A stretch of DNA of 27,498 bases from Amoebophrya sp. A120. Its lineage: Eukaryota; Protista; Dinoflagellata. Below the pieces are notes generated by a model. That model worked only from the letters and a program-made list of their open reading frames with translations, was not told the origin of the DNA and ran no database searches. Shown here in pieces: positions 2,032 to 27,498 of this stretch (positions are counted from its first letter, which is position 1; each line of letters opens with the position of its first letter). A program made the position numbers and the translations under genes. The stretch spans positions 37,059-64,556 of the forward strand of contig CAJINV010000030.1 in assembly GCA_905178155.1 (NCBI GenBank), in the 5' to 3' direction.

Positions 2032-2100
2032 TTTAGATTAAGTACATGTTCGCAGCAGAAGCATAGTTGTTGTTTTCTGTGGACACAGTTCAAGCTACCA

Positions 2101-4854: not shown

Positions 4855-5415
4855 ATGGTCGTCGTCGAACGCTACGAAAAAACGGCCGCCGACCCCGAGG
4901 CCGCCTATCGCGCAGGGACCATAATTCGGGTGAAGTGGCCGCATACAGATGGCACCAAGGGTTGGTACACAGCAATGATCACGGGGGTGTCAGAGCGCAT
5001 TAGTCCGGTCCGGAAACGCAGCACTCCGTCGCACTATCGCTACACGCTGATGTGGGCAGACGGGAGCAGATCGCTGGCCTCTAGGTTGCTGCACCTGAAG
5101 CACAAGATACGATACCAACCACATCAAGACAAGCGCTGCAATCTGCGCGCCTTCGTTCATTGTAGTGATGGGAAAAGACACGAACTGCCTTTGGGTGTCT
5201 CTTACACTCAGCCAACATCTCGCTGCACAGTACACTCCGCTCCCCGATTGAAAGTTGTTTCGCCTACTACTATTTCTCAGATGAGTCGCTGGGCTTCTAT
5301 AACTCTACCACAGTACCCAACGGGAAAAGCCGCAGTGGATGTGGCCAACCGGAAAAGGCTTGGCTTCATACTGGATCACCTGCACAAACAACGCCGCCGC
5401 GGCGACCAGGAATAA
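4855..5415 (+). CDS. Small protein with Tudor/Agenet-like N-terminus and possible AP2-like C-terminus, 186 aa
   Basis: Seen: conserved with 6047-6565. The pattern GTIIRVKW..DG..GWYTAMI...YRYTLMWADG resembles Royal-family Tudor. LPLGVSY...QYPTGKAAVDVANRKR resembles AP2. Domain calls are by eye. Confidence 0.7.
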   Translation: MVVVERYEKTAADPEAAYRAGTIIRVKWPHTDGTKGWYTAMITGVSERISPVRKRSTPSHYRYTLMWADGSRSLASRLLHLKHKIRYQPHQDKRCNLRAFVHCSDGKRHELPLGVSYTQPTSRCTVHSAPRLKVVSPTTISQMSRWASITLPQYPTGKAAVDVANRKRLGFILDHLHKQRRRGDQE

Positions 5416-6046: not shown

Positions 6047-6565
6047 ATGGTCGTCATCGAGCGCTACGAAAAAACGGCCGCCGACCCGGAAGCGGCCTAT
6101 CGGGCGGGAACTTTGATCAGGGTGAAGTGGCCGCATGTCGATGGAGCAAGTGCCTGGTATACAGCAATGATCACGGCAGTCTCGGAGCGCATAGCTCCCG
6201 TCCGAGAACGCAGCACTCCGTCGCACTATCGCTACACGCTTATGTTTGCCGATGAAAGCAGGTCGCAAAGTTCCAGGCTGTTGCATCTCCAGCACGAAAC
6301 CCTCTTCAAGCCAAGAGCACAGCTCGGCCGCCCTCGTTCCTTCGTCCATTGTGACAACGGCAAAAGATACGAACTGCCTGTCGGTGTTTACTACAGCGCG
6401 AAGCAGCCCAGATTGCGCGTTGCAATGATTGCGACTCCTCGCAATTTCAACCTAAGTCTGGGCCAATACCGCTCTGGCAGACTCGCGGTTGAGGCAGCAA
6501 ACCGGAAAAGGCTCGGAGTTATACTGGACCACCTGCACCGGCAGCACGAGGGCCGCGAGGACTGA
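6047..6565 (+). CDS. Tandem paralog of 4855-5415 (Tudor-like + AP2-like), 172 aa
   Basis: Seen: ATG at 6047 (MVVIERYEKTAADPEAAYRAGT) aligns with the paralog start. The ORF-track start at 5909 is a GTG extension. The stop is at the equivalent position. Confidence 0.72.
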   Translation: MVVIERYEKTAADPEAAYRAGTLIRVKWPHVDGASAWYTAMITAVSERIAPVRERSTPSHYRYTLMFADESRSQSSRLLHLQHETLFKPRAQLGRPRSFVHCDNGKRYELPVGVYYSAKQPRLRVAMIATPRNFNLSLGQYRSGRLAVEAANRKRLGVILDHLHRQHEGRED

Positions 6566-8780
6566 AGGCACCTTCAGACTTAGAGTTGCGCTCGCTCTAA
6601 GAACTACATACAGGCCGAAGAAAATCTCCTTCGTTTCATCGATTGATGAGCAACACATAGCAAGAAGTCCAGCGACGTGGCTGTGAGAGAAATCAAAGGA
6701 CAGCAAAGCGATGTGGAAACAAAATGCAATGAACGTTTTTTACATGATTATTGGTTGCTTTATTGAAATCGAATGGACCGTCCCGCACAGTGTTTTGAGC
6801 CACCAGCTTGATCCAAATTCATATACCACTACTTCCACGACGACGGTTGTGTATCTGCGGACATATGAATTTCCCCAGCTTGAAGTACTTGCTGGGAGCC
6901 AAGATTCAGCGTAGACGCTGAGTTTTGTGGTATGTCTGAAAAGTATTGGAAGAATTAGGAGCATTAGAACAAGTAGGAGTATCCATATCACACGAATACG
7001 CGTGTTAACAAACAGCACATTGACATTCGTGAACTACAGATAAAGAATCACAGTCGCGACCCGCTAGGTTTGCTCTCCGATTGAAATTTCATTGCGCACG
7101 ACGGAAAAAAAAAGGATCATTTCTCCGTAGTGTATTGTCGACTTTCAAACTTGCGACGTTTTTGATCACGCGGTGCTATGTGCAAGGATCCCGGCTACCT
7201 ATGTGTCAGCGTACGGGGGGCAAATTTTTTATGATAGATCAGTATGCATCGATCAGGGAAGCTCTAGTCCTGTGTCGAAGCATTTCACAAAAGTCCTAGA
7301 GTGTGTAAAGGATTCGTAATGGTTGAGTACGAACTGCCTCTCCAAGCGTTACAAACCCACTGATCGATCCGCTCCAAATTTTATTGATCTCTTTTTCCGA
7401 TCCTTTGAAAATGTATAATTTCCTTTGGTGTTTGTCAGTATTAAATGTTGTTCCATCAAATGGGTCTTAATCTCGTGAGCCTTTTTTGTGCAATTTTGTT
7501 CAACACAAAAAAACAGTTGGTCCATGTCGAATCTGTTTCTGTCAAGAAAAAATGAAAAAACAACATGACAAAGAACGATCTCGATAACCGATATGATTTT
7601 CGAATAGGTCTTAAAGATCTTCGTGTATAGTATAGGTGAGATCAGAATCGCAAATGAGGATCGATCCGCATTCCGCCCGCTATGATGCAAATCACTGGTA
7701 AGGCACATGATCTGGAATGACATGATCTATAGACAGCATTGCCCTGGTTCGGCGCACATTCACCGGATGGCGACGATTTGGCCCAAGATAAAAAACCATT
7801 TCCACAAAGGGTTTAGCTTGGGCCAAGCGTGTGGCTATTGGGCCGCCAATTGGCTTCTTCAGCGTCGCGCACTACAGAATCGCGCTCTGTATATTTTCGC
7901 ACTTGCCACCGAATCACCAAGGGACTGAATCGATCGGGCAGCTTTAGTTACAAGTAGTAGCTTCGACCTAGAGCTAGGCTATTTGGGTAAAAATAAAACG
8001 GGGGCGGAAGTAGCACTAAAGCGTGGCAACAAGTGACCCGCTGACTCGCGCCCTTGAGTTAACCGGCCGGCCGGCCGGGCAGTCATTTAACTCGCGGCTT
8101 GAACGGTAGAGAATTCCTGGTTAAGTGCAAACAGCTCCAGTGGTGCTCGCTCTCTCGTTGTTATTGGCCGGCCGGCCGAACGCTTAGCGTGCGGGCGCGA
8201 GTTAGCAGTTGATGTTACCCCGCTCTTACAAATCGGCAACGAAGTAAAAACTGAAGTTGTTTGGTGAGTGGAACGCGCACATTTTGGGAAGAAAAACGCA
8301 TGAATTGCGAGCCCCCGCCGAACTGTGGGCCTTTTGGAAAGAATTGCGGTGCTCTAACCTATCCATTTCGGAACTAGATTCTTCGAGCGGTGCTTCTCTT
8401 TCAATCAAAACCCAGGGCAGTCTTGAGAATATTGTCACCTACTTCGGGCATCTCGCCTCTTTGTGGAATAGTTACGTATGACAAGCAACGACCCGCATTC
8501 ACAAACGATTTTTCTATAGCCCTGGTATCGAATAGAAAGCCTCACCCTGTGCAGCCACGGTATTATTCCGTAATAGTTGGCCCCGGCTGCTCCCGTGTTG
8601 TAAAACGTCCTCTGCCACGGTCGCTTGCAGAAGCGTCGTGTGAATAGCGACTGGGCCAGTATATTTTCACTTTCGCCTTCACCTTCAAGCGTAGCTACCT
8701 AAATATTGATTTGGATTACATGTGTGCAGCATATGCAGAACCATAGTTGTTGTTTTCTGTGGACACAGTTCAAGCTACCA

Positions 8781-9512
8781 ATGTCGAAACTTGCAGGAGG
8801 AAAGTGCTGCTTGTTCGCCCTTCTCGTGAACTCGGCGCTCGCAGTAAAAGTAATGTCAGTTGTCTCGCCATTCGGCCTCCGCGAAGAAGCATCGTCGCCA
8901 CACGCAGAACAAGTAGCCTCCGCGACTATAAATCATGCGAATGGTGGTCGCGATGGGCCGCGTCTGCATCGCGTCCGCCGGCATGTAGACCTCCGACAAT
9001 TCGCGGAAGACGCTGCGACACACAGAAGCCCACAATCCCCGAGCCCGCAATCCCCGACGCAGACAGGACGACTGGACCGGAACGCACAATCAAGGACGAC
9101 TCGACCGGAACGATTGGCGACGTACAGCTGCCCGCAACCCCCGACACACAGCCGCCCGCAATCCCCGACGCACAGCCGCCCGCAATCCCCGAGTCGCAGC
9201 ATTGTGCTGGGATCGTTGCCGACCTACTCGATGGCGCGGGACAACAATGTGGATCATTTTTATATTGCATCGAGTTCGAGGCGAAACGGCAACGGCGATC
9301 ATGTAGGGAGCGGCGCGACATCTTTGTCGGCCTTGCTGCCAAGGAGCAGAACGCCTTACCTGCTTAGGTCTCCTTCGGATATGTCGGATGATCGTCCAGC
9401 ATCTTTATCTTTACTTTCCCCGTTCAGATTACCTCCATCGTTGTGGGATGAAGATGAATCTGGGTCAGACTATGAATCTAACTTTCTCGACGGGCCTGGT
9501 GCTGGCGGTTGA
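8781..9512 (+). CDS. Predicted secreted Ser/Pro/Arg-rich protein, 243 aa (paralog of 2101-2889)
   Basis: Seen: ATG at 8781 (MSKLAGGKCCLFALLVNSALA), 24-bp HSRPQSPT repeats, same C-terminus FLDGPGAGG. 5' and 3' flanks are also duplicated. Confidence 0.7.
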   Translation: MSKLAGGKCCLFALLVNSALAVKVMSVVSPFGLREEASSPHAEQVASATINHANGGRDGPRLHRVRRHVDLRQFAEDAATHRSPQSPSPQSPTQTGRLDRNAQSRTTRPERLATYSCPQPPTHSRPQSPTHSRPQSPSRSIVLGSLPTYSMARDNNVDHFYIASSSRRNGNGDHVGSGATSLSALLPRSRTPYLLRSPSDMSDDRPASLSLLSPFRLPPSLWDEDESGSDYESNFLDGPGAGG

Positions 9513-10518
9513 GAAAGATTCGCCAGTACGAGCACTACATTCCCGTGTGTCGGAACCTAAAGGACTTGCGCGACAAGTTAAATTTCATCGTGGAAAATCA
9601 AAATGACCACCGGGCGGTGTGCTGTTTCATTATCTTCTACAAAAATTTCATTTGGATACTTTCACTATATTGAAAACTAAAATCCCCAAGGGAAGTTTGA
9701 AAATGAGCACTGTAGCATAGCGAACTGAGAATATTTTTGGACTGATACTCCTAGCGCACTGATGCTTTCACTGTAAGCTGTACATAGCCCAGGGTAATAA
9801 TAATTTCGCTTTCGAAAACATAAGCAAAGCTTTTTCAGAAAACCAGAAATACCTAGCTTTCAAGCTTCTACTTATCCAGGTCCAGCCACTATCTCTATCC
9901 CGTTGCACGAAGCTTGTTGATGCCAAGTTGCAAATTGTTCTTTTCGGATATATAAAAACAAGATCACCAAGGTGTGAACCTGTTCGAGCACACTCACGAC
10001 CTTTAGCTTTCATACGCACTGCCTTTCAACAGCTTCTTTTGACGTGCCGGAGTGTGTGGTGTTGCGCACGCCTCTCGGCTACCGATCGACAGTGGTAACA
10101 CTGAAAAGATCATACTTCACTGATAAAAACTAGCCGTCGTTTTTTTGAACTTGAATTTGACGAATCGCTACATAATTCTTTGTGTCGTTAACTTTCACGT
10201 TCCGTTCTGTCATTCCCAGCGATAAAAGAGTGTCAGAACGAAATGATGAAGTAGGGCAATGAAAAAACGATCACGAGTGGAGACAACTTCGACTGATCTT
10301 CATCACCTTCTGTAGCTTAATAGAGCTACTAGCTTTACTACCCCATCTGTTGGAAAATCTATCGTTGCTCACTGACTCATATTTTATCCTGCCCACTTGA
10401 TTTTGATATGTGCAAAAATTCTGGTCATCTTGTCGTAACTTTATCTTTTTTTTCTCACGACCTGTCAAAAGTAAAACTCATGCTAATTCTTGTTTAGAAG
10501 AAGCCCCGGCGCATCAAC

Positions 10519-13500
10519 ATGGCTGAAGATTTCCCCAAGAACAGCAACAACCCTCGTTCTCCCAAGGACATTCTGGTCCAGCTTTGGGGCCAAAAGACGG
10601 GAAGTGGCATCGCGAACGTCCTTGAAGATTTTTTTGACGCTAAAGACGTTGATGCCAATGCTGACTGTAGCACGTTCGAGTATATAGCCGAGCAGTATTC
10701 CAAGGCCGCACCCGCAGACCGGAACAGCCGGGCCTCTCTGGGAGATGTTTTAGTAAGTGTCTTTGAGGACGCGGCGGATGCGCGCAACGCACTAACCGGT
10801 GGAGGACGGACTAATCCAGGAGTTCTGCATGTGTGCGTGAAGCGGGCGCAAGAAAGCCCGAATCCTCTTGCTGCGGTGCGGGGCGAAGACCTCGTTTTTG
10901 TTTCGCAAAAAATCAAAGAATATCCGCTGCAAATAGGTCTGGCTCTAGAAGGTTGGAGCTTGTGATGCTAGCTTTCCACAGTACCTCGGAAATTTGTATT
11001 GCATAACCAACAAAAGTCGCAGCCTCTTTTGTGCAAGCAAACACGCAGTTTCTCCTGCGGATTTCCCTTGAGAAAGCGCTCTGGAAAGTTGTCATGCTAG
11101 GTTGCATTCGTAACTGTTTCCATCATCCACATTTTAGCATCACAAGTTTCCAGACATCCAGGGATATTTGCATTTGATAGAGAACACCTTCCGAAACTTC
11201 CGATCTATGAAGCGCGGACGCATCCGCTTCGCGCCGGCTACTACCAGCTTCGAGCAATAACCAACAACCCGGACGACAGATTGAAAGTAGCTCCCAGTTC
11301 TAACAAAACCGTGCCTGATAGGACCACGCTGCAAGTCCTCCGGGAAGAGCGTGGGAAGATGCTGGAGGCACGAAACAAAAACAGGGAGAACGACTTTTCT
11401 GCCAAACGCCAGCTCCTTGATGATCTTCCAGACGAGAAGCCGTCTCTTATGAATAGGCGGTCTGTTCGTGGCGGCACCCCGCAGGATTTGTTGTCCCCTG
11501 GCGCCGCTTCCACCATGACCCCCATGTCGCGGCGAGCAGGTCCGACAGCGGCCGGCATGCCTGCTACTTTCGAGGGCCCCGCCGCGGGGGGAAGGACCGA
11601 CAGACGCAGCCACGACCCTGAGCAAGCGGGCGGTGCGCCGGGTAGTAGTTCTACTGCTAATGATCGAGGACCTTCACAGGACGTTCTTGCAGCTGTGAAC
11701 AAAGATAAGGAAATTAAAACGGCGCGAGGAAAAGCTTCTCTCGCAGCGCGCGTGAAAGATGCAGTCCTTCCCGGATATTTTGTTTTGGAGGGCACGGTCG
11801 CTGCTGGACTAACGCACAAGCTCGTGCAACTGCTGTTCGCATCGCCGTCACCGCAAGCCGCTGAATTCTTGCAAGGCGTGCTGAAATCCAACAAGCCTGG
11901 CACTGTTGCTGCTGCTACATCTTCTTCAAGTTTAACATCATCGTCCCGGAAGAGGAGCAACAACAACTACCAGGAGGGCAAGCACAACGGTCTGGAAGTG
12001 GACTTTTTCATCGAAGTGGGCCTCAGATTTTTCCAGAATTTCGCCGCGTTTGGCAACCACCTTTTACGCCTGATCGTGAACAGCGCACCGACAGCCTCAA
12101 CTCCGAGTACTACAACACCAAATAGTGACTCATTACAACGCCCATCGGCTGCAACGTCCAGCTTCGAATTCAAGAGTTGGCTGGAGCAATCCCGTGACAA
12201 AATGGCGCAGCTTCCGACCTGGAGAAACAGTGTGGCAGCGATGCGAGCTGCGAGCCTGGAAGGTGTTTCATCGTCGTCCTCCTCCTCGTCCCCACGCCAC
12301 GTTCTTTTTCGCGCCCCGGAGGAGCCTTTTTCCATCCCGCTGCCTGAAATGGCACAACAAGCGAAAGACCTCACCTTGAGGTCCTACAAAGAGGGCCGGG
12401 TTCTCGGCATGGTGCACCCGCGCGTGCTCGACGAAACGGACGAAGGGGTCGAGCGGCAACGGGTCGAACAAGCTGCAAATGTTGGCGGGTCAGAACAAGT
12501 TCTAGGCACTACGACTGTCACTGTGCACGAAGGAAATAAAAATATTACCAGAACAAACTACAACAACGCTACAAAGAATTTGGTCCTCGCAGACTCTTTT
12601 TCGCGATCTTTGCTCCCGTACGACTTTGACCAAATTTTCGATCAAAACATCGACGCTGCGCGGAAGCGGGCTTTGGGCCGCAGCGACCCTGCTGCCAGCG
12701 CAGACATGTTCGGGGACGAGGACCCTGACGGTGCGTCAATCGTAGCTCCTACGACCATATGAATTGCAAAAGTATCGTACTCGTAGTAATTGCAGTCATG
12801 CATGACAAGTCTGGTTCCTCAGCTTATTCAGCATTACAAATTCCATTTTTCCTTCTGGAAAAATTTGTAATGCTATTTTTACTAGTACGATACTTTTGCA
12901 CAGGATAGACCACACCCAGAAATAACGAACGCGAGCAGGGGCACAGTTACGACATCAGCTTCGGAACTGTGTTGATGTTGCATCCGGCGAAGCAAATCAA
13001 ACAAAATAGGCAGGTAAGACCACAACAAGCACGAGTCATGCATCAGGACATTACGCAGCAGCAGGTCGAGACCACACCGGACGGCACGATGAAAAGAGTG
13101 CGTCTTGGTACAGCACAACCCTCTCCTGGCGCTGCAACGAGAGGACCCTCCTCCCAACACGCCGGAACAATTCTTGCGCCTCCTTCCAAGAGCCAGTCCT
13201 CGAGTTTTATTCGACCTCCCGTGCAAGAACACGGGCCCGGATCAGCAACCGCATCCGGTGGCATTGCTGCCGTGCGTCCGGGAAAGCCACGCCAAGCTGC
13301 AAAAGCAAAAGCAATTCGCTCTAGTACCCGAACGGGTGAGACGGAGGCTGCGTTCCTGGAGAGAATCGGTCTGTTCGCAGCAGCATCTTCGCCCAACAGT
13401 AGTTCTGGGCTCCTCGGGGCACCAGATCATGGAAAACTAGAGGACGCCAGCGGGCAATTCGCCCGGCCCGAGGCGAGTCTGCAGCAACTGTTTGAGTCAG

Positions 13501-16500
13501 GCGTTCCCGAGGAAAATGCGAGCAGCCAGTTTGCGCGACCAGAGAGAATTTCGCGGACAGGACCTGCCGGCTCGTCTTCACGAGGAGGAGGACCTGCTAC
13601 CGCATTTTTCGCAAGGAGCAGTAGCTCTAGCAGCTCCCATGCAGCTACGAGTAGGGCTGTGGAAGCGCAACTTCTAGCTGCCCCTGGTTCATCAGGAGGA
13701 CTACATCGACGAGATGCTGGGGCGGGTCGTGAGCTCGCGGATAGCAAAGCCAGCGGCCGCATCAATCCTGCTTTGATGCAGAAGGCAGCTCCTGGAGGAG
13801 GTCCTCGTGGTGCGGACCAAGCCGTAGACACCGCTCTGTACGAAGTGCCAATGACTTTGTGTTGCAATCCCGGGAAAGCTGTGGAGCAAGTCGCGGACAG
13901 GTTGCGGTACCCACCCGAGAGCATGGAAGCGTGGCTGAACCCCTTTTCCTCGGCGCCGGAACAGAGGTTTGCAGGAACAGTATACGACCACATTGACGGC
14001 ATCCAGCGCAGCGAGGTTGATCGCCTCCTGCTCGAGCTGGGGGTACACCGCACCGACATGCGGGGCTTTTACGCGCAAAACTTCCAAGGGATGGTTGACA
14101 GAAATCACACGGTATCGGACAGAGCTGTGCGGCAGATGCTGTACTCGCACGCCAAAGTTTTTCCGACTGTGCTGACCCAGGCGGGATTGCGGAAGTTGAC
14201 GCCGCATCCCTGGGAGTGCACGGACCTGCTGATCCCGAACCCGGATGCCGAACGCGAGTGCGACATATTCTGACGAAAAATCCCCCCTCCCCATATTGAA
14301 AAAACATCCTTCTGAGAATTTGTGATGCAGATTTGTGACCACAAATCCTGACTGTCTTGCAAGAAGGCAAGGCCAGAGAGTCCGCCGCATTATGCAGGCG
14401 GTTTGTGATGCTGTTGGGCTTACAGAGCCGACATTTGTCTTCACGCTAGTCGCTTACGTTCAAACCTCTCGCCTCAGGCTTGGCATATGCCTGCAGTCCT
14501 CTCCGGCAGGACAGACCTGATTTGTGTACTTACGCAGATCCAGCATCAGAAATTTCGTTTCGATATGGGGAGGGGGGATCTTTTTCTTTGATACGACACG
14601 CCGCAGCTTTGGAGCGCTACGGAGTCGCTGCGGGCGGAGCAGGCTCGCACCGTGACCTGGATGCAAAAAATGGACCATGATCTGAGAGATGACCGGGACG
14701 CGTACCCAGAGGCACAAGAACAACCCGCCGAGGCTGCGGGGGCTCTTGATCTTGATCTTCTCGCGCCCCCGTCTCGTCGTCCACAAAAAACGTTTAGCGT
14801 TCAGTGGTCGCTCTATTCTGCCGGAAATGATTTTATCAAGGACAAAGCGCAGGTAGGTAAAAATCACAGGAAAGTTGGGGGCCTTGGAGCTGCCGACGCT
14901 GCTCCGGAAGCGGCCTGGAATCTCGAGCTCAGCTTGGACATTCGCTACCGAGCTCGCGGTGGCGTGCTGGCGGATAGCATGGGAACCGGGAAAACTGTTA
15001 CCACCATCGGATTTCTGTGCCATGACCTGCAGGACATCTACAGTGACAAGCTGCCGGCCAAACCGAAAGCGAAGGGGACAGCGAAAAAAGGGGCGGCAAA
15101 AGCGCTGGCGAAGCAGGCTCTATTGCGATCGAACAAACGACAAAGAGCTACTAATGCAGCAGGCGATGAACTGAAGGAAAACAAAAGCAGTGGAGACGAG
15201 GACGCAGCGATGTCGAAAAGGGGCAAAAAAGTGAGAAAGAAAAAAGTGATTACGCCGCTCTCTGACGAGTCGGACCCGGAGAGGGAAGCTCCATCGGCTG
15301 CTGCATCTTCTTCGCGACGAGAACTCCGACCAGGGACGACGAGCCAAGCGGCTCCTTTCGGGTCTTTGTTGTTTGGTGCAAATACTAACGACGTTCCGTA
15401 TTCAATGGCAGAGGGGGCGGATAGTTCGGATTCCGACCTGCTGCAACACTCGGGGCATGAAGCGAACCGGATTGCCATGGGCCTTCCATCCTCGGGGGGC
15501 CGTGCGCGGCGGGAAGCGCAGCCACAGAACAAAAACCGGGATCGGTCAGGGAGCTTGTCCTCTTCGTCTGCGGAGGGGGACCACAGTGATGATTCGTCCT
15601 CATCTTCGCGCAGCACAACTTCGGATTCCGTGGTTCTGGAACATCAAGAACCTACTACGCAAAGAACCGCAAACAAGAAAAGCAGCACTGGTGGAGGTCC
15701 TGCACGAGGACCGAATTCTAGTCGTGGTACAGCTTCAGCTTCTGCAGCTGCAAAGACGAAACTTCAACCTCCGGCCTCGCAGCTGGAACGTCAGCTTGGT
15801 GGAGGAGGAGGTCCGACGTCAGCCGCAAGTTCTAGTTCCAAGCCCCCCGTTGCCATCGGCACTGGCGGGGGCCCCTTGAACAAGCCCGGTCGGACGAAGT
15901 ACCAGGTGTGCGACGAGAAGCTCCACCAGGTTCTGCGGAAGATCGACGCAAACATCCCCGCGCACGACCGACGGTTCTACTTCCCCAGCCGGGCCACCTT
16001 GGTCCTCGCGCCGGAGAAGCAGCTGGCCCGACAGTGGGACGAAATGATCAAGAAGTTCACGCAGCCGGACGCCGTCAGCGTGCTCCGCTTGATGAAGTGG
16101 GACCAGCTGAAGCTGCTGAAGAAATCCGACATTGCGGAGAAATACGACGTGATTCTCGTTTCCTTGAGCGACGTGCTGCAGAAACAGAAGTACCAGGAGC
16201 GCATTCGCAGCCTGTGCGGCCCCGACACCTACGCGTCCGAGGAGCAACTGTGCGAGCTGTTCGCGAAACCAGTTCCAATGCAGTATTCCGAAGTCTTCAC
16301 CGAGCTCCAGCGCCGCGTTGCCGACGGGAAACGGCGGATGCCGGAACCCACGAGAGCAAGGGAGACGGCGACCACTAGTACCACGGTGAATACCAAACTA
16401 CCAGCAGGTCGCGCTAGTAAGCGCACGAACAACGCTGCGGGTCGTGAACTGCAGGGAGTGGCAGCAGGAATAACCTTCGACAGTGCATTTTTACCAGCGA

Positions 16501-19500
16501 GCGGACCGCCCGAGGAGGTCGTGGAGGACCTTGCAGAGGACTTCCATTTTCCGGTACTGGAAATGTTTTATTTTCGGCGGATCATTTTTGACGAGTTCCA
16601 CCAATATTGCGACCGGGACGGCGAATCCATCGCGGAACTCGAAGCGAAGCTGCGTCGAACAGACGAGCACAGGCCTGCGAAAACCAACAACCGGCGGCCC
16701 GGTATCCGGGAAGTCGCCACCTCTAGAAGTAGTTCCACCGGCGGGGCAGGGGCACCACTACATCAACTTCCAGGTGGAGCCACGTCGAAACAGCAGGCGG
16801 CCGCCAGTGCTAAACTTGTGAGGGACAATAAGGTCCAGAACGTGAACAGCCTGACGCGGCTGCAGCACTTGAAAGGTCTGGCTGCCTTTGGGCTTTCCGC
16901 GACCCCGCCCTGTGTGACGCTGGACGGTATCGACAAGACCAGTTGCTTGTTGCAAAAATTGGACCTTCTTCTGGACAAGACTGCCTGCACGAAGCGGTGG
17001 GAGTACTTCCAGCGGGGCGGGCAAAACGGCCTGCGCTACTTGGATACGTTTTGCCGGCAGACGCGGATGAACACCTACGTCGACAGCATTGAAGTTATCG
17101 ACCGCAAAATTCCGGTGGAACTGACCGCCGCGGAGCACACTTTGTACCTGGACCTGTTTCGGGAGTTGAACTACAAGGGCAAGAATCTGGACCTTATCAA
17201 ATGTAAAAATGTCTGGGTCTGGAAGATTGCAACTTGTGATGCTGCGTCTGCATTATCCAAAATTTTGTATTGCATGAACAGCAGAAGAGGTCTGGTTTTG
17301 GCCACGGCGAGAGGGCATTTCTCATGCGGTATAGGCATCAGAAAGCCCTCACAAGACCTGTGATGCTAGGGCATGCATCGCAGACATCAGCAGTCATGCA
17401 AAATGTGCATGACAAACCTTGCATCCTTCCAGACCCAGACATTTTTACAGTTGATAGACCTGCTTCGGGAGCAAAACGCCAGGCTGGAGGCCGGAGAGAT
17501 GGTGGTGGACGACCCAACTGTGGCCGCAGCTTTTAGTCTGACATCAAGTAGAAACAGCAGCACGACGACGACCAGCGCTAGAAGTCGTGCTGCGGCCCTG
17601 TACAGCGCGACGTCGACAAATCTTTCGCAAGAACGCGGCAGAACATTGGACGACACCTCCGAGCAGCCCGTTTTGACGGCGAACACGTTGAAGACCCGGA
17701 CGAGGCTGCTGAAATTGTGCTCCTTCACTTCCACGATGCAGGATTGCAAAGACCGGTACCCTATGCATTGCAAAAGTATGGTACTCTTATAAATGCATTA
17801 CAAATTTCCTCAGCATGAGAATAAAATCTGTAATGCGAATTTACCTTAAAAAAAGGTAAGAGAGGGAATCAGACTTAGTAAACGGAATCAGACTAATGGA
17901 ATCAGACTACAAGTGGAATCAGTATAGTAGAATCAGCATAATGAGTAGAATCAAGATACTAGAATCAAGCTTATGGATAGAATCAGGAGAAGCGGACTCT
18001 GAGTACGTCGACGAATGTGCTGGCCGCGCATCTCTATCGTATGCATTCGAAACGCTCTCTCCTTTGGTCCATCATGTTTTGCAGCTCCACCGGGTCGCTT
18101 TGGTCTCCTCGCAACTTCGCCCGAAGTTCTTGAATGCTGTGCGTTGCGATTCTACTTGGGGACTTAGTTTGCATGTTGGGTATGTATGTCTGCTTAGCTG
18201 TTTCCGTTCGCTCCTCGGCGCACTTCATGCACGACCACTTTAAAACAGACACGCGCCAGGAGTTTGCTATTGGCGATCCCGGTTGACAAGGTGAAATCTG
18301 AAGTAGCCAAAAAAACCGTAAAGGGTAGAAAAATAAGCGCCAACTATAGAAAAGAGAAACTAGAAGAACTACGTCCATCCACTGCGTTCTGTCTATTGTT
18401 TCTCTGTGCCCCTACTTCGCTGCTTTGCTTCTAGATTGCATCAAAAAAGCGCGCAAAAGTGCGATGCTTTGTGGGAGCAGAATTTCCGGACTTAGCCGAA
18501 AAACAGCTCTTCTTTGCGATATTTGTTGAAAAATAACGGGGGAACTCTCGCAAATTTTTAAATATCGGCCTCGTTTTTCGTGTTTTTACTTAGCGAAACC
18601 CGGCCGAGACAGGCCGAGGGGGATGATAGGCGCTGCCTCACAGCAGCGCAGACTGTGCCGCGCGTGCTCGCAGCAAGCTCTGCTGGCCATTCGTTCAGGC
18701 GCATCTGTGAGCCCCTTGCTCTGTAATGGCGCGCAGAAGCGCGGCGCTATATATGTGCCGCGGCCGCCGCGTTCGATGCTCTCCATCCCGCCCTGCCTGT
18801 CCTGGTCTGTCCTCCCGCGCCCCGCCCCGGCTGCGTTGGAGCTGCGCTCCAGGCCTTGCGCACCGATTGACGGACCAGGCGGCCCCCCCGCCCGTTGTTC
18901 GCTCGGTGGGCCGCCTAGAAAGTTGCTCAGGTTGGTACATCGTCGCACAGGCCGGGGCCGTCGGTGCTTCGATTTTTGGGTGGGGCGACTCCACTCGCAT
19001 TGCAAGTGGTCGGGGCCGCAGTGGCGCAGATGTGTCGGCTGGGACTGCCCTGCTCCCCCAGGCGCCGCCCCCCGACCTAGGGGTAGCCACCTTCCCAAGG
19101 GCGCAGCCATCTGTATGTCGCAGCAGGGCGGCTCCCATAGGCTAGCGACGTGGCACCGCCGAGCATAGAGGCGGGGCGTGCCGGCGGCGAGGCTGTCTTC
19201 CCGGTCCTTGTCCGCCTGTGACTGTGAGCAGCGCCTCCCGGCACGGGCGGTGGCGCCCCGGCACTGCCCAGGTCGACAGGGATAGATAGAAGTCGAGCAC
19301 TTCGAGCTTGGTCTTTTGTTTTGCGATCGATCAACGTTCGAACCCCTGCCCGCGTGCAACTGAACCGAGTGAACTTTTCTGATCTCTGAGCACGATTATG
19401 GGAGGCGCTCACCCTCCCCTTTCTCATACTCGCGCAGGGGAGTGTGAAAGGTGTCGAGGTGCGTGGGGGGGGGGGAGCGAAGACACGCCCCAGCAAATGG

Positions 19501-22500
19501 CGGGCGTGGGGCTTGTCGGGTCGGTGTTTGGCATGTGCACGCATGTTGGCCGTTTTTTCGTGGCTCCCTCTGCGTTTTCCCAGCAGCCGACCGCGCGCGG
19601 GCGCAAGCAGCGCACGGACTGGATAGCGCAGCACTAGTTTGATTCCACTAGTCTGATTCCACTGGTAAAGCTGATTCCATTAGCCTGATTCCATGAATAA
19701 GTCTGATTCCGTAAATCCTTTAGTCTGATACCATCGACGACCACTAAGACTTATAATGCATGAATGCAACACGAGTGCGATACTTTTGCACAGGATATAC
19801 CCGGAGAAAAAACGAGAGGTGCTCCGGCACCAGAAAGAGGTGGAGGAGCAACTGCTGCTGTTCGAGTTCTTTATGCGGTACGCTGACCTGATGCGGGCCT
19901 ACCAGGGCAACAATCCGCGGACGTTGAGCTATGCATTGCAAAAGTATCGTACTCGTCTCTATAAAGGCATTACAAATTTCCTCAGCATGAGAAATAAAAT
20001 TTGTCATCCTGATTTCCCTCAAGAAAAATACTTGGAATGCATATGCAAAACATGCATTTATACGAGTACGATGCTTTTGCACAGGATATGAGCCGGATGA
20101 ACCTCATGTTCGAGGAAGACATACGCACCGAGAGTGAAGTGGCCGTTTTCGGAGTTACGAAAGCGAAAGCCGAGGAAGTCGTGGTCCGGCAGCGCGGACA
20201 GCCTCCCGGTGAAGATGATCCACTCCGCGGCCGCGACAACAAAAATGCAGCATGCGCGAGTTATGCACTGCATCAAAACCATAAGTATCGTACTAGTATA
20301 AATTGCATTACAAATTTTTGTCCTCAAAGACAAGAAGAAATTGTAATCCTGATTTGCTTAAGGTAGAACATCAACATTTGTCATGCTGCATGACAACTGC
20401 AATTCATCCGAGCTGGCGATACTTTATTTGCAGTGGATGCGAGTCTTGTTCGAGATTTGGAGGCGCGGCGAAAGGAGTACAAGGATAGAGTGTTAGGGCA
20501 TGAGTGGTATGAGGACGCGGCCGAGCAGAACGAGAAGGACGGAAAAATGACGCTTTTCGACGGCATGCTGTTCCGTTTGAATTGGAGGCGGGAAACTCCA
20601 AGTTCGAAGCTGGTTCTGGGTCCTTCCAGTCGCGCAGTGATGCTGTTGCACCACGTGAAGGATGTCTTTGGCGACTCTGCCTGCCTCTGGGGCGGACGAG
20701 TCCTCAAGGATTTTGGGCTGGACGACCCGGACGATGACGCTCGTGTTGCCCAGGCGGGTCTCTCTGCCTATCAAATGCAAAAATGCCCGGGCCTGAAAGA
20801 GTCATGCTGTTTTTGCATGACACAGAAGGTCTGGCATGGAAGATCTAGCGTCACAGGTTTCATCGAGAAGCTTCCGCAATGCCGAATCCGCGTGACAAAT
20901 CCCCCATTTTGGTGACAGAAATAAGTGGGTAGCTTTTGCTACCTATGCATGAGAGATTTTTCTGTGTTTTGAAATGCGCATGATCGTAAGGCTGTATTCT
21001 TCCAGACCCAGACATATTTGCAATCCATAGACCGTACCACCGAGGAGAGGGCCTCCCAGATGAACCGGAAGACCTGATGCAGGTTGTCGCCTGCCGCATT
21101 CACCGGATCGTGCACGGAATGGCTCATGGCCAGCTCTCCAACGCACGCCTGGAAAGTTTGGTTTCCAAGTTCGCCGCAAATCTGTTTGGGCTGGACACGC
21201 AAGAATCGTCCCGGCTACAATTCCGTCGGCAGAAGAATAATAAATCCGGTCGTACTACCGCGCCGGGGCTGTACGCGGATATTTTCCTAGACGCCAGGGA
21301 GTTCGAAATGTTTTGCGAAATCAATGATTTTCAAATAGAGCAGGACATGGGCAGTGGGCGCGACAACATTGAAACGAGATGGAAAGCGAGGGAGGCCATG
21401 GCACTGGTTTCGGCGCGCGACCCGGGCCCCGGAAAGCGGACGCGACGGCACCTCGCGGGCTTTTGCGACCGCCACGAGCATATCAAATGTAAAAGTGTCT
21501 GGGTCTGGAAGAATGCAATTTGTCATGCTAAATCTGAAGCATGCAAAAATCTGTGTTGCATGATTACCAAAAGTCGTCCAGTTTTGACCATGTCGGGAGG
21601 GAGTTTCTCATGCGGGATAGGCATGAGAGAGATCGCACAGAATCTGTCATGCTAGGTCCTGCATTCCAGACCTCGTGGGTCATCGAAAAGCTGCATGACA
21701 AATCGCGCATTCTTCCAGACCCAGACATTTTTACATTTGATAGAGCACCGGTTTTCGCGGGAAGAGTTCCGGCGGCTCATGCGGCTCTATATGAGGGGGT
21801 TCTCAATCGTTCCATTCTCTACTGTTACAGGGATTTGTCATGCAAATTTGCCATGCGTCTCTACATTTATCACGCTGCCTCGCATTTTTACAGGTTCGCG
21901 ATTCGCTAAATAGCATTTAGATTCTACCGCCAAACAATCTGTAATGCAAAAGGCGCATCAATCTTCCCCCACCCCCTATACACTTTTGCCATTCTTGCAT
22001 TACAAGTTCATGCAACAGTTCAGAAGGTAACCGATTTGAGAACGCCATACTGTACGGCCGGAGCATTGGACGTCTGGACCCAAAACTAGATGTTTTTCAG
22101 AATGTCAGCGACAGCTACAGTGCTTACCTGCATTTTCGAAAACTTCTCCTACGCGACGACAACGCAACTACAAGCGTAGACGGTGGACTAGTACACCAGC
22201 AGGGCGGCAGGGGCTCTGTAGATGAAGTTGACACGACCGAGTTGATTGACGCCCAACTGGACTCCGGCAAGCCAATGCTGCTCGACGTCATGACGCACTT
22301 TCTCCCCAAAATCGCCTTATCGAAAAACAGTCCGTTCTATGACAGTGCACAACTTGATGATGTTCTCGTTCCCGGCCCCTCATTTTTTGTGTGCCATGAA
22401 TACAAAGACGAACTACTTACACACCATCACACGTGTAGCCTGTGCATGACAAGTTCATGGGCCCCCGCGGCCGGAATGTAGTACCGTAATATGGTGTCGT

Positions 22501-24670
22501 TCCTGAATTTGTAGTCATGCAAACAGTGTCACAAGGCAGCAACTACGTTCATCCTGAATTTAGCATGGCAAAAATTGAGAGATGAAGAGCAAGGGGACCA
22601 CGACCACGAGCACGAGTTGTACACTGTCATACGCTCCGAGACACCGACGAGCTCCTCGATGCTTGTGGAACTGATTTTCAATCGGTGCTGATAACTTTGT
22701 ATCGGTTCATCGAGGAAGTGTTTGTGCCGAAGCTGCAAGTGTTGCGGGACGCCACCAAGTCACTGCAGTTTTTCTCTCAGGCGCTCCGCGCGTTTCTGAA
22801 GACGAGCACCAGCGGGGGCAGAGAAGAGGAACCAACGACAGGATCTCCGGGAGGAAATGGTGCTGCCGGCGCAGCTCTGGACTCCAGTTTGGACGAGGTG
22901 GAAGAGGAGGAGGAGAAGAACCAGAAGCAGGAAAGCAAACGCCCGGTAACAGCTTCTTCCGTCGTAGCACAACTCGAACCAAAACTAGTTCCTGGACCAC
23001 AACTCAAGCACCTGTTTGACCCTGCGAATTACAACGAGAAGAGTGCAACCTGGTTGACCCTGCCGAAACAGCGTCCGACTCGTCGTGCTAAAGCCGCTGC
23101 TGGGGGCGCAGCAGGTTCATCTTCCACTGCAGCCGCCTCCGGGGTTAATGGAGGTCAAGACCAGGAGGAGCAGGTTATCTGCACGATTTGCCACGAAGAG
23201 ATCGTTGACAAGCCGTACGACCACGACGGCACGGGCATGGGAGTATCGGATTGCGTCATTCTCGCCTGCGGGCACATCTTTTGCCGGTTCTGTCTGGAGA
23301 TGCACCTGCAAACGAACAAACGGGATTGTCCCACTTGTCGGGAGAGCCTGCCTCCGGACAACAAAGACGCCTACTTCTCCCTGGCGAAAGAAATGTCGGC
23401 GTTGCAGCAGGAAGACCTCAGGAGGGAGCAGCAAAACCAGCAAATTCGGAGCGGTGCTATTTATATCGCTCAAAGATTTCCCTTTACGTGGGTGCATGTC
23501 AAATGTGGCTTTACGACAAACTACAGATTGAGATTGCTAGCGCTAGGGATGAAGGTTCGGTCCACAAAAGATGAATACGAATTTGACTTTCAAGCACGTT
23601 TTGATCGATAGACAAAACCTTTCGCAGCGCAAATGGAAATGCCAAACGTAAGTATCAGTATCTCCTCTTTCTAAGCTATAGAAAACATCTTTTTCTACTT
23701 TTAGGTACAGCAATCGATTGGCACAAGATTCGAGCTTTGCACGGCAGCAAACTCTGCAAGGTAATCTTCACATCTTCCTTTGTACAGCGTGAAAAACAAT
23801 GCCATCAGGATACATGTTTTTTCATCAATGGATCATCATCATCCGTGCATTACGTGCCGTACCTACGAAATATTGCTTGAATGAAAATGGCATTATAGCA
23901 TTAGTTCATAGGCATCAAATCGACGAGAAAGAAACAAATCCACCACAGCCAGCACCGAACAATCATGTTATTTCTTTCTACTACTCTATCAGGTCGCGCA
24001 GACGCTTCAAGACGACATTCCGTTACAGGACAAGTGTATTCTCTTCGTCCAGTGGCCCGAGCTGCAAAGCAAGATTCTGAAGTGCTTCAAAGACTGCGGG
24101 TTCCACGCCGCGAGCCTCACCGCCGGCCGTGTGGGCCCTGTGGATGATCATCATGAACGAGCCGGCAAAGGAGCTAGTGCGAGTCGAGGGGCTGCGGAGG
24201 TTCTTAGTGGCGCAGCGGCATCTGCGTCTTCCGCAAGCTGCGCCACGGGACGAGGAGCAGCAGGGACGTCGAAAAAATACACCCAGATGAAAAACGACCA
24301 GGAGCAGCTGACTGCCGAAGAGCAGAAGCGGAGCAAGAGTTCGATCATCGACCATTTTCTGGACAAGAAGAACCCGCTGCGCATTCTCATCCTGTCCCTG
24401 GATCAGCAGGCGACGGGGCTGAACCTGCAAGTGGCCCACCACGTGCTGTTTCTGCATCCCATGAACACGGCGGACTTTCAAGAGGGGATCTCCGCGGAAA
24501 TGCAGGCGATCGGCCGGGTCCGGCGAGTGGGCCAGGAATCGAAGCAGATCTTCGTGTGGCGGTTTTTCGCGAAGAATACCGTGGAGGAGGAAGTCACGTT
24601 GCAGCACGAAATGGAAGTGAAAATATCCAAGCTGGAATACCAGCTAGAATGTCACGGAATGATGTGTTAG
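10519..24670 (+). CDS. Multi-exon SNF2-family helicase/ATPase with embedded C3HC4 RING (Rad5/Rad16/HLTF/SHPRH-like), ~3,070 aa
   Basis: Reconstructed exons: 10519-10920, 11185-12757, 12913-14265, 14599-17194, 17462-17761, 19803-19929, 20094-20261, 20445-20768, ~21035-21480, 21748-21789, 22055-22337, 22637-23453, (23612-23647 tentative), 23705-23760, 23993-24670. All joins are in frame. Motifs seen: LRAEQARTVTWM, GGVLADSMGTGKT, ATLVLAP..LARQW, FRRIIFDEFH, LSATP, RING, HGSKL, ILFVQW, GLNLQVAHHV, QAIGRVRRVGQ. The 3' end is uncertain: a possible GT-AG intron 24617-24823 would extend the gene to 25108. Confidence 0.85.
10921..11179. mobile_element. Introner-like TIR intron 1 (259 bp, DR AAGAA/GAGAA)
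   Basis: Seen: tatccgctgcaaata...tatttgcatttgata. Removal joins ..QKIKE|HLPKLP.. in frame into the 11281 ORF. Related to the 262-bp family. Confidence 0.8.
12758..12907. mobile_element. Introner-like TIR intron 2 (150 bp, DR GACCA)
   Basis: Seen: tatgaattgcaaaagtatcgtact...agtacgatacttttgcacaggata. GACCA at 12753 and 12908. Removal gives APTT|TPRNNE in frame. Confidence 0.9.
14266..14593. mobile_element. Introner-like TIR intron 3 (328 bp, DR CGACA)
   Basis: Seen: ~36-bp imperfect TIR with core atcccccctccccatat. CGACA at 14261 and 14594. Removal gives ERECD|TPQLWSATESLRAEQ, which restores the SNF2 Q-motif region. Confidence 0.9.
14599..17194 (+). CDS. Exon encoding the SNF2 N-terminal ATPase lobe (motifs I, Ia, II, III) with long low-complexity inserts
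   Basis: Seen: GGVLADSMGTGKT at ~14958, DEFH at 16590, GLSATPP at ~16890. Confidence 0.9.
17195..17456. mobile_element. Introner-like TIR intron 4 (262 bp, DR GACCT)
   Basis: Seen: 31-bp TIR tatcaa(a/c)tgtaaaaatgtctgggtctggaag with 1 mismatch. GACCT at 17190 and 17457. Removal gives KNLDL|LREQNARL. Confidence 0.92.
17762..19797. mobile_element. Introner-like TIR intron 5 (150-bp family, expanded to 2,036 bp by a nested insertion; DR TACCC)
   Basis: Seen: tatgcattgcaaaagtat...atacttttgcacaggata. TACCC at 17757 and 19798. Removal gives CKDRYP|EKKREV. Confidence 0.88.
17862..19744. mobile_element. Nested non-autonomous DNA-transposon-like element with inverted subterminal GGAATCAGACT arrays; candidate DR TAAGA
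   Basis: Seen: ~8 GAATCA(GACT) units at 17865-17986 and ~6 reverse-complement (AGTC)TGATTCC units at 19640-19732. TAAGA at 17857 and 19745. Removal leaves a 148-bp element matching its siblings. No recognisable transposase. Confidence 0.7.
19930..20088. mobile_element. Introner-like TIR intron 6 (159 bp, DR TGAGC)
   Basis: Seen: tatgcattgcaaaagtatcgtactcgt...acgagtacgatgcttttgcacaggata. TGAGC at 19925 and 20089. Join PRTLS|RMNLMF. Confidence 0.9.
20262..20439. mobile_element. Introner-like TIR intron 7 (178 bp, DR CGAGT), diverged 150-bp family member
   Basis: Seen: tatgcactgca...tgcagtggatg. CGAGT at 20257 and 20440. Join AACAS|LVRDLE. Confidence 0.85.
20769..21029. mobile_element. Introner-like TIR intron 8 (261 bp, 262-bp family, DR decayed)
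   Basis: Seen: tatcaaatgcaaaaatgcccgggcctgaaag...cttccagacccagacatatttgcaatccata. The flanks ctgcc/gaccg do not match, but removing the element plus 5 bp still restores frame (GLSA|YHRGEG). Confidence 0.8.
21481..21742. mobile_element. Introner-like TIR intron 9 (262 bp, DR GAGCA)
   Basis: Seen: same TIR and length as 17195-17456. GAGCA at 21476 and 21743. Join FCDRHEH|RFSREE. Confidence 0.92.
21790..22049. mobile_element. Introner-like TIR intron 10 (260 bp, DR CTCTA/CTGTA)
   Basis: Seen: tatgagggggttctcaatcg...cgatttgagaacgccata. Join LMRLY|GRSIGR is in frame with the 22242 ORF. Confidence 0.8.
22338..22631. mobile_element. Introner-like TIR intron 11 (294 bp, DR CGTTC/CGCTC)
   Basis: Seen: TIR tatgacagtg(c/t)acaact. 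Join KNSPF|RDTDEL is in frame with the 22685 ORF. Confidence 0.85.
22637..23453 (+). CDS. Exon encoding the C3HC4 RING finger of the SNF2 protein
   Basis: Seen: CTIC...CGHIFCRFC...CPTCR at 23180-23341. Confidence 0.88.
23761..23992 (+). other. Canonical GT-AG intron
   Basis: Seen: aag|gtaatc ... tttctttctactactctatcag|gtc. Splicing gives HGSKLCK|VAQTLQDD..DKCILFVQW, the expected post-RING SNF2 motif. Confidence 0.8.
23993..24670 (+). CDS. Exon encoding the SNF2 C-terminal helicase lobe (motifs IV-VI)
   Basis: Seen: KCILFVQW, ILILSL..QATGLNLQVAHHVLFLHP, EMQAIGRVRRVGQ, VWRFFAKNTVEE. Confidence 0.88.
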   Translation, partial: VAQTLQDDIPLQDKCILFVQWPELQSKILKCFKDCGFHAASLTAGRVGPVDDHHERAGKGASASRGAAEVLSGAAASASSASCATGRGAAGTSKKYTQMKNDQEQLTAEEQKRSKSSIIDHFLDKKNPLRILILSLDQQATGLNLQVAHHVLFLHPMNTADFQEGISAEMQAIGRVRRVGQESKQIFVWRFFAKNTVEEEVTLQHEMEVKISKLEYQLECHGMMC

Positions 24671-25209
24671 ATGTGAGTGAGCAGGTGCTGCAGAACGATG
24701 CTGGTCATGATCTCTTCACCCGTTTATATGTCTTGCATGCGTATTAACCGTAAGTATCTATGTAGTATCATGAGAACATTTTTTATTCCAGATGTCAGCA
24801 TCTTTTTTGTTTGTCATTTTCAGGTTGTAAGAACATCCAAGAAAACACTAACACCTGGGCCGCACAGCCAACACGATGCGCTAGCTTTTTTTCCAGACGA
24901 TAACGACGTCGGTTTGGTGGGAGAGGCGAATTGCTCCAGTTTGCGCAGGAGAGCAACCGTGCCTAGCCTGGGAAAGTTGAGAACAGGAGGCGAAGAGAAG
25001 TTTTTCAGCGTAGGTCGTGGAAGAGCCTTCTCTATACTAGTCCAAAAACCCAATTCATCACAGCAGATCACCACGTGCACGTTCGTAGACAAGCTTAAGG
25101 AAACTTGAACTGAAAAAGAGGAACACGTCTGTTTTATATATTTGTATTCAGTTTACTCAAAAGTAGGTACAACATAGTCCCAGGTGGACAATCAACGAGG
25201 ACCTGCCGG

Positions 25210-26530
25210 AGGGCCAACAAGCCCCGGCGCCAAGGGCGGGTCGAAATTTACTCTAAAAAATCGGCCCCATACCTTCGGGGAAAGCGTTCGGGGAGCCAAC
25301 AAGCCTCGGGGCCCGAAGCGCGCGGGCCGGAATTTGCTGTAAAAAATCGGCCCTATACCTTCAGGGAAAGCTGCCGGGGGGCCAACAAGCCCCGGGGCCA
25401 AGAGCGGGTCGAGATTTGCTCTAAAAAATCAGCCCCATACCGTCGGGGAAAGCGCTCGGCGAGCCAACAAGCCTCGGGGCCCGAAGCGCGCGGGCCGGAA
25501 TTTGCTGTAAAAAATCGGCCCTATACCTTCGGGGAAAGCTGCCGGGGGACCAACAAGCCCCGGGGCCAAGGGCGGGTCGAGGTTTGCTCTAAAAAATCGG
25601 CCCCACACCGTCGGGGAAAGCGCATGGTGAGCCAACAAGCCTCGGGGCCCGAAGCGCGCGGGCCGGAATTTGCTGTAAAAAATCGGCCCTATACCTTCGG
25701 AGAAAGCTGCCGGGGGGCCAACAAGCCTCGGGGCCAAGGGCGGGTCGAGATTTGCTCTAAAAAATCGGCCCCATACCGTCGGGGAAAGCGCTCGGTAAGC
25801 CACAAAGCCTCGGGGCCCGAAGCGCGCGGGCCGGAATTTGCTGTAAAAAATCGGCCCTATACCGTCGGGGAAAGCTTCCGGGGGGCCAACAAGCCCCGGG
25901 GCCTAGGGCGGGTGGAGATTTGCTTTAAAAAATCAGCCCCATACCGTCGGGGAAAGCGCTCGGTGAGCCAACAAGCCGCGGGGCCCGAAGCGCGCTGGCC
26001 GGAATTTACTGTAAAAAATCGGCCCGATACCTTCGGGGAAAGCTGCCGGGGGGCCAACAAGCCCCGGGGCCAAGGGCGGGTCGAGATTTGCTCTACAAAA
26101 TCGGCCCCATACCGTCGGGGAAAGCGCTCGGTGAGCCAGCAAGCCTCGGGGCCCGAAGCGCGCGGGCCGGAATTTGCTGTGAAAAATCACCCCCATACCT
26201 TCGCGGAAAGCTGCCGGGGGACCAAAAGGCCCCGGGGCCAAGGGCGGGTCGAGGTTTGCTCTAAAAAATCGGCCCCATACCGTGGGGGAAAGCGGTCGGA
26301 GAGCCAACAAGCCCCGGGGCCCGAGGCGCGGGGGCCGCAGTTTGCTGTAAAAAACCGGCCCTATACCTTCGGGGAAAGCTGCCGGGGGGCCAACAAGCCT
26401 AGCCCAGGCGCCAAGGGCGGGGCGAAATTTTTGGTAAAAAAATCGGCCCCATACCGTCGGGGAAAGCGGTCGGAGGGTCAACACGCCTCGGGGTCCGAGG
26501 CAAGGGGGCCGGAATTTGCTGGAAAAAAGG
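25210..26530. repeat. GC-rich tandem satellite, ~8 x 168 bp, each unit a dimer of related 82- and 86-bp subunits
   Basis: Seen: CAACAAG-type anchors recur at 25215, 25383, 25551, 25719, 25887, 26055, 26223 and 26391, with the second subunit offset by 82 bp. Confidence 0.92.
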
Positions 26531-27283: not shown

Positions 27284-27498
27284 TTGGCGGATTCCGCATC
27301 CACTTTTCGGACCGGAAAAATCGCATCGGGGCGTGCGGAGTAGGGAGGAAAAAGTTGGCGGATTCCGCATCCACTTTTCGGACCGGAAAAATCGCATCAG
27401 GGCGTGCGGGATAGGGGGGAAAAAGTTGGCGGATTCCGCATCCACTTTTCGGACCGGAAAAATCGCATCAGGGCGTGCGGGATAGGGGGGAAAAAGTT
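27284..27498. repeat. 71-bp tandem repeat, ~3 copies, running off the window end
   Basis: Seen: GATTCCGCATCCACTTTTCGGACCGGAAAAATCGCATC at 27290, 27361 and 27432. Confidence 0.9.

Follow-up and report, generated by a model that had tools for sequence, protein, structure and literature searches.

The locus described here raises the question of how a long protein-coding gene can be expressed while it is interrupted repeatedly by transposon-like inserts whose ends do not follow the GT-AG rule. The window, by which we mean the whole stretch of 27,498 nt from Amoebophrya sp. A120, contains a gene for an SNF2-RING-helicase C protein on the plus strand (10519–24966), modelled with 15 exons, a product of 3058 aa and a stop at 24964; the features of this gene given below lie on the same strand. 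The putative first exon and start codon were placed by the open frame and by RNA-like depth in the 10300–10786 bin. A sequence-only reading of this DNA had described a part of the gene with 11 elements. All 11 exist and carry terminal inverted repeats (TIRs), but the gene continues beyond that part, with two canonical introns (c1 and c2) and a twelfth element (E12) that had been missed.

Pfam domains follow one another in the product as SNF2-related (exon 4, 14598–17192, E 5e-13), C3HC4 RING finger (exon 12, 22637–23452, E 5.8e-8) and helicase C-terminal domain (exon 14, 23993–24622, E 1e-5), an order that we take to be a RAD5/RAD16-like layout. The canonical GT-AG introns c1 (23454–23704) and c2 (23761–23992), separated by a 56-nt exon, were seen in the RNA-like contigs and in a public protein, P0001. 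This protein (Amoebophrya sp. A120, 2585 aa) was the single match to an exon 4 query, at 100% identity, and corresponds to residues 474–3058 of our model with no mismatch over 2585 aa. Its start falls in exon 2, downstream of E1, and the junctions of E2–E12 (11 of the 12) together with c1 and c2 are already present in this gene model. P0001 probably derives from aligned transcripts and is to that extent not independent of the RNA data; the A120 annotation pipeline is described in section 25 of PMC7789003, as far as its available text goes. A second A120 protein, P0002 (3529 aa), has SNF2 and RING domains in the same layout and is likely a paralog. Two protein searches (1 and 4 matches, the others covering ~20% of the query) returned no ortholog for a presence/absence or dN/dS comparison.

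The elements were located by scanning the whole window for TAT...ATA pairs scored on TIR and direct repeat (DR). The scan returned 10 of the 11 elements noticed earlier and one more at 264–601; E7 was placed manually. BLAST grouped eight of them into two families, E1/E4/E8/E9 and E2/E5/E6/E7. The first comprises E1 (10921–11179, 259 nt, DR AAGAA/GAGAA), E4 (17195–17456, 262 nt, GACCT), E8 (20769–21029, 261 nt, decayed DR CTGCC/GACCG) and E9 (21481–21742, 262 nt, GAGCA); E4 and E9 share 79% identity, E9 has a near-perfect TIR, and the interior of E8 is reversed relative to E9. The second comprises E2 (12758–12907, 150 nt, GACCA), whose interior is reversed relative to E6, E5 (17762–19797, 2036 nt, TACCC), E6 (19930–20088, 159 nt, TGAGC) and E7 (20262–20439, 178 nt, CGAGT), which ends in ATG rather than ATA. 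The others are E3 (14266–14593, 328 nt, CGACA), E10 (21790–22049, 260 nt, CTCTA/CTGTA), E11 (22338–22631, 294 nt, CGTTC/CGCTC) and E12 (24624–24902, 279 nt), a TAT...ATA element with a decayed DR (GAAAA/ACGAC), a weak TIR and single-copy DNA depth. DNA depth is high over most elements, and among 150 outside loci listed neither E11 nor E12 found a match over 60% of its length. E5 is an E6-family shell interrupted by an unstranded nested insert of 1.9 kb (17854–19745), which has inverted subterminal arrays of a GGAATCAG-containing unit and a GC core of 60–70%. The DNA depth of this insert is ~100, compared with 25–30 for single-copy DNA, and therefore a few copies exist. A Pfam scan of three stop-free frames of the nested insert for a transposase gave no match.

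The TIR score of the first against the last 40 nt exceeded that of shuffles with p ≤ 0.002 in 10 of the 11 elements first noticed and with p = 0.026 in E7; TIRs are significant in all 12 elements at p ≤ 0.026. TAT is present at the 5′ end of 12/12 elements and ATA at the 3′ end of 11/12, so that the TAT...ATA rule, previously called strict, holds in 10 of the 11 with E7 as the exception. A run of A near +11 is clear in the E4 family, the E6 family and E3, and is shorter or shifted in E10–E12. The DR matches at 4/5 or better in 10/12 elements and at 1/5 in E8 and E12. Recounting the original 11 gave the same tally as before (7 perfect, 3 with one mismatch and 1 decayed, at 1/5), but the 5-bp DR rule is not strict, as E8 and E12 are cut precisely despite their 1/5 match. 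The earlier statement that no shift of the junction yields a consistent GT...AG was confirmed: six registers were tried and neither GT-AG nor GC-AG appeared in any of the 12 elements.

Restoration of the frame at 11 of 11 junctions by removing the element and one DR copy had been taken as support for the 5-nt rule. The frame is indeed open through all 11, but this fixes the length of the removed segment only modulo 3, and deletion of the element plus 2 or plus 8 opens the frame just as plus 5 does. In addition, each element has 7–70 in-frame GT/GC-AG alternatives within 60 nt, and in 7/11 one of these pairs matches the required length exactly. Because of these alternatives, the frame cannot by itself establish the 5-nt rule or non-canonical splicing, and the exact +5 is drawn from the RNA-like contigs and the public protein.

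Four sequencing runs were compared over 10300–24900: X1 (DNA), X3 and X6 (RNA-like contigs) and X9 (raw reads). X3 and X6 were called RNA by an automatic guess, no run being on record as RNA; we take them as mRNA because X3 record 14 and X6 record 20 lack both GT-AG introns, with 483 nt (c1 + c2) skipped between 23452 and 23991. Between 17189 and 20439, X6 record 18 lacks 2655 nt, which equals the summed element lengths plus 5 nt each (L+5) of E4–E7, and between 21475 and 22635, X3 record 14 lacks 831 nt, the summed L+5 of E9–E11; both losses are sums and not single-element measurements. For E8, a piece of X6 ends at 20766 and a piece of X3 starts at 21033, both without differing letters, a 266-nt skip that equals E8 plus 5. 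X3 and X6 alike have pieces with a start at 22635 and pieces with an end at 24622, and E12 was recognised because the latter stop there with leftover sequence. The RNA-like contigs thus support the junctions of E4–E12 (E12 at its 5′ side only) and P0001 supports those of E2–E12. A transcript loss of the element plus exactly 5 nt, as the sequence-only reading predicted, was found for E4–E7 and E9–E11 (as sums), for E8, and in P0001. Its statement that the gene looks functional and that the elements must be removed precisely accordingly stands for E2–E12. The loss of E1 appears in none of the RNA-like rows listed, and E1 lies upstream of the start of P0001; E1 is presumably removed as well, as the open frame, its kinship to E4/E9 and the RNA-like depth over exon 1 suggest.

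The unique interior of E5 has zero depth in X3 and X6 and a depth of ~100 in X1. In the RNA-like runs, sequence belonging to elements is plentiful. In the DNA run X1, exon–element borders are spanned with 0–1 differences at a depth of 16–29, and record 8 is unbroken from 21720 to 24900, covering E10, E11, c1, c2 and most of E12. The 15 joints listed, out of 881, included neither true junctions nor empty sites. In X9, 33 of 2,374,254 records matched, all partially and at 90–99% likeness, within 5 of 30 element-bearing bins. The contigs and P0001 support the view that the gene is expressed, that its inserts are introns of transposon origin without GT-AG ends, and that they are lost with exactly one DR length.

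Where the cut falls within the DR could be narrowed further. P0001 shows no mismatch to the model at register 3 or 4, three at registers 1–2 and one at register 5, and register 0 leads to a stop. At three junctions with mismatched DRs, the cut falls behind base 3 or 4 of the DR (E8 and E12 after base 3 or 4, E11 after base 3 or later), and the ends of the RNA-like pieces jointly allow the same two registers only. Registers 3 and 4 are indistinguishable from each other because DR base 4 is identical in both copies of 12/12 elements. The cut is most likely after base 4; every intron would therefore start with N-T, which retains the U that ordinary donors have at +2 and leaves the 3′ dinucleotide free. 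In Table S4 of PMC7789003 (available part), each of the nine motifs given as predominant in A120 has T at +2, which fits register 4, yet tie-breaking by the aligner could produce the same pattern. Pairing or slippage between DRs is not needed, because E8 and E12 with a 1/5 match are still cut at L+5, and length and interior are irrelevant to cutting, because the E5 shell with 1.9 kb inside is cut alike. The cut is thus likely measured from the element ends and not from DR pairing. We tentatively propose, at somewhat less than even confidence, that all TAT...ATA introners of the lineage share one register, in which the cuts fall one base upstream of TAT and four bases downstream of ATA, regardless of flanks, DR match, orientation and length.

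End-to-end folding is seen in most elements, for example in E9 with a z of −11.7. The end-to-end folds of E12 (z +0.3), E8 (z −1.2) and E7 (z −1.6) are weak and none of the three beats shuffles, and the pairing probability of TAT with ATA is ≤0.15 in E1, E2, E10 and E12. Because these three elements fold weakly and the TAT:ATA pairs are often open, the stem alone does not set the cut, and recognition of the motif may be as important as the stem. The 'hairpin-guided' removal suggested earlier therefore agrees with most elements but not with E12, E8 and E7.

Copies of the E4/E9 family were also found in another assembly. A search with the E4/E9 end pattern gave at least 150 loci, and the 80 of them listed with a source all come from the series JACKZZ01. 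The 150 loci listed include 120 full copies, selected with neither the far-end ATA nor a DR as a requirement; 110 of these have both TAT/ATA ends and 50-nt flanks, and 84 have an orientation margin >3. This part of the analysis concerns DNA sequence only. Among the 120 copies listed, ATA is present at the 3′ end of 112, and a 5-bp DR is perfect in 99 and matches at 4/5 or better in 111; DRs of 3, 4 or 6–10 bp are perfect in at most one copy, and the mean match is 0.93 at 5 bp compared with 0.24–0.32 at the other lengths. Such a fixed 5-bp TSD of variable sequence is what a TIR DNA transposon (MITE-like) has. Frame and orientation were tested with a codon model trained on the gene in the window, which classified 31/31 held-out segments of that gene correctly, an optimistic figure for other genes. 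The L+5 class read best in 73 of the 110 flank pairs listed (p 1.5e-12), and the interiors of the 84 oriented copies listed are divided 45 to 39 between the two orientations. A GT-AG pair is possible in any register in 5 of these 84 and GT/GC/GA-AG in 9. The outside copies thus seem, as far as DNA can tell, to carry a 5-bp target duplication of free sequence and to be tolerated in either orientation.

The same copies gave no sign of several other features. The ends are not strand-specific, the same end types occurring at both sides in the copies listed. No special conservation of DR base 4, the sole match left in E8 and E12, was seen (mismatches by position 7, 6, 5, 6 and 6 in the 110 copies listed), nor was G enriched at DR base 5 (27/110 listed) or AG clearly needed at DR bases 3–4 (9/110 listed). 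The first eight TIR bases come in a few variants common to several families (outside loci listed, E5/E6/E8), and the TATGCATT end of E5/E6 recurs as one end of E9-family copies; these shared variants suggest an exchange of ends between families.

Other features of the window lie outside the gene. The thirteenth TAT...ATA element, at 264–601, has a perfect CCGGT repeat and a fold z of −7.6 and is up to 72% related to three outside loci among those listed; no long frame opens upon its removal. A duplicated block (2055–3040 and 8735–9669, 80–96% alike) holds one intronless ORF in each copy (2101–2889, 262 aa; 8733–9512, 259 aa). Both ORFs have a hydrophobic N-terminus and contain 24-nt repeats that encode Ser/Pro/Arg motifs. 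Three paralogous starts (MVV[IV]ERYEK...) are found at 1958–2025, 4855–5415 and 6047–6565; two lead into ORFs (186 aa and 172 aa), and the first is truncated where the duplicated block begins. An intergenic inverted repeat at 8040–8206 (42-nt arms, 76% complementary) flanks GGCCGGCCGGCC runs, and two tandem arrays lie downstream of the gene, at 25203–26528 (168 nt × 7.9, the unit consisting of two 84–86 nt halves) and at 27284–27498 (71 nt × 3).

With the anatomy, the multi-copy families, the varied 5-bp duplications, the presence in DNA and the exact L+5 loss from contigs observed, we consider it probable that the elements are copies of non-autonomous TIR transposons with a 5-bp duplication, and that a modified spliceosome takes them out of the pre-mRNA, placing its cuts by distance from the TAT and ATA termini. 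A TIR transposase would insert the element and duplicate five target bases, and RNA processing would remove the element together with five bases, restoring the original message. The terminal stem, or a factor binding the motif common to both ends, would bring the ends together, and the putative spliceosomal catalysis would cut at a fixed distance from TAT and ATA. Removal independent of splice sites, as proposed in the sequence-only reading, is doubtful: the conserved motifs at the element ends, from which the cut keeps a constant spacing, would in that case be the splice signals.

Several other explanations were weighed against this account. Splicing of the usual GT/GC-AG kind at cryptic sites close by, known from the introners of Micromonas or Aureococcus, would find in-frame pairs around every element, as counted above, but the RNA-like pieces end inside the DRs, the skips are sums of L+5 and P0001 has no mismatch at E2–E12; apart from E1, where it could still apply, we regard this explanation as extremely improbable. 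Short DRs flanking stable hairpins are the typical setting of template switching by reverse transcriptase, which would create false introns in a MITE-riddled gene or pseudogene. That setting is present here and the runs compared contain no direct RNA; against such an artefact, E8 and E12, with a 1/5 DR and weak folds, are missing by the same L+5 rule, many elements are jointly absent from one contig, and the 3058-aa frame with SNF2, RING and helicase C in order appears only upon joint removal, which makes it hardly credible. Ciliate internal eliminated sequences (IESs) have transposon-like ends and are removed from somatic DNA precisely, with one repeat copy. An IES-like excision that acts on DNA in the transcribing stage, with the result that the mRNA never contains the elements, had been offered earlier as one of two routes, and the TIRs and the loss of one copy of the target duplication do resemble precise transposon excision; both orientations occur, and the runs compared do not separate life stages. 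Unlike ciliate sequences, however, the A120 elements are kept in DNA contigs and their repeat is a variable 5-mer. X1 has elements joined to exons at single-copy depth and its record 8 is unbroken, although contigs drop rare variants and the X1 counts overflowed, and the RNA-like runs are rich in element sequence. We therefore judge this route very unlikely. Removal is at the RNA level, both DNA excision and a template-switch artefact being unlikely.

At the RNA level, a non-spliceosomal endonuclease-ligase or a domesticated transposase-like protein could recognise the paired ends, a route that has been put forward for the nonconventional introns of euglenids. The available text of PMC7789003 reports 83/89 spliceosomal proteins and U2, U4, U5 and U6 in A120, without U1. 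Because nearly all spliceosomal proteins are kept and U1 is not detectable, a modified spliceosome is our first choice and a nuclease-ligase its main rival. The near-complete spliceosome speaks against the latter, as do the 15% of canonical A120 introns that have the DR/IR layout too (PMC7789003, available part), the +2 U kept by register 4 and the cutting of weakly folding elements, and we consider a non-spliceosomal route unlikely but worth keeping in mind.

E1–E12 belong to the introner elements (IEs) of Amoebophrya sp. A120, a class already published (Farhat et al. 2021, PMC7789003). The sequence-only reading was correct that non-canonical introns with inverted and direct repeats had been reported in Amoebophrya but understated it, as the TAT start, the A-run, a 5-bp DR example and a hairpin model are all found in the available part of that paper. 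There, the inverted repeat of A120 IEs is given as 8–20 nt, with TAT, seven variable bases and at least three A, and the DR as 3–5 nt overlapping the exon–intron boundary, with the 5-bp example in Fig. S19; A120 has 29,850 repeated introns, and canonical and non-canonical introns are mixed in single genes. The same text describes the splice position relative to the hairpin as variable or unknown and also mentions repeats that have four bases ahead of the 5′ end; the register may already be shown in figures 3, 4 and S19–S25 of the paper. As far as the available texts go, tens of introner introns occur in single A120 genes (PMC12130899), and elements of this kind occur in only part of the genus (PMC12005148). 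Our elements resemble the published IEs in the organism label of P0001, the TAT inverted repeat with its A-run, the hairpin, the DR across the boundary, RNA-supported non-GT-AG junctions and canonical introns alongside, and differ in that the removal of E5 (2041 nt) exceeds the 40–1000 bp window of PMC7789003 (available part).

Comparison with other lineages draws on the available parts of the sources cited. Introners of Micromonas, Aureococcus, Symbiodinium and Polarella share the TIR/TSD transposon origin, the loss of one TSD length and, in some families, bidirectionality (PMC9860276, PMC11282704, bioRxiv 10.1101/2020.10.14.339549), but they carry GT/GC/GA and AG sites or recruit them from the TSD, whereas GT-AG is possible in any register here in 0/12 window elements and 5/84 of the outside copies listed. 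Amoebophrya has no mention in the available part of the 2020 preprint of Roy et al. 2023 (Curr Biol). Euglenid nonconventional and Fritillaria non-canonical introns likewise have non-canonical ends, pairing TIRs, TSD-like repeats and species-specific positions, and differ in terminal motifs and lineage: Fritillaria introns prefer AG-AC/AG-AT ends, unlike the A120 elements, and euglenid ends obey a pyrimidine|purine rule that was not seen in the A120 elements (PMC11282704). The literature searched, with subscription journals outside its scope, contained no paper resolving how these elements are spliced. What our analysis adds is likely the three-junction evidence for a fixed, repeat-independent cut register and the precise cutting of elements with a decayed DR and of a 2-kb nested element.

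One gene thus offers a set of natural variants, the perfect E9, the decayed E8 and E12, the end-mutated E7 and the nested E5, beside two ordinary introns. That the register survives loss of the DR, inversion of the interior and a nested insert of 1.9 kb narrows the mechanism to end recognition. A fixed register can be tested on existing RNA data and would fix the annotation of tens of thousands of junctions. If the single register is true, the published 'variable splice sites' would come down to the DR leaving the position of the cut ambiguous. The end of the transposon would then serve as a novel and symmetric splice code, which a spliceosome lacking U1 or a novel excision enzyme would read and which would let an element land anywhere in a coding exon harmlessly.
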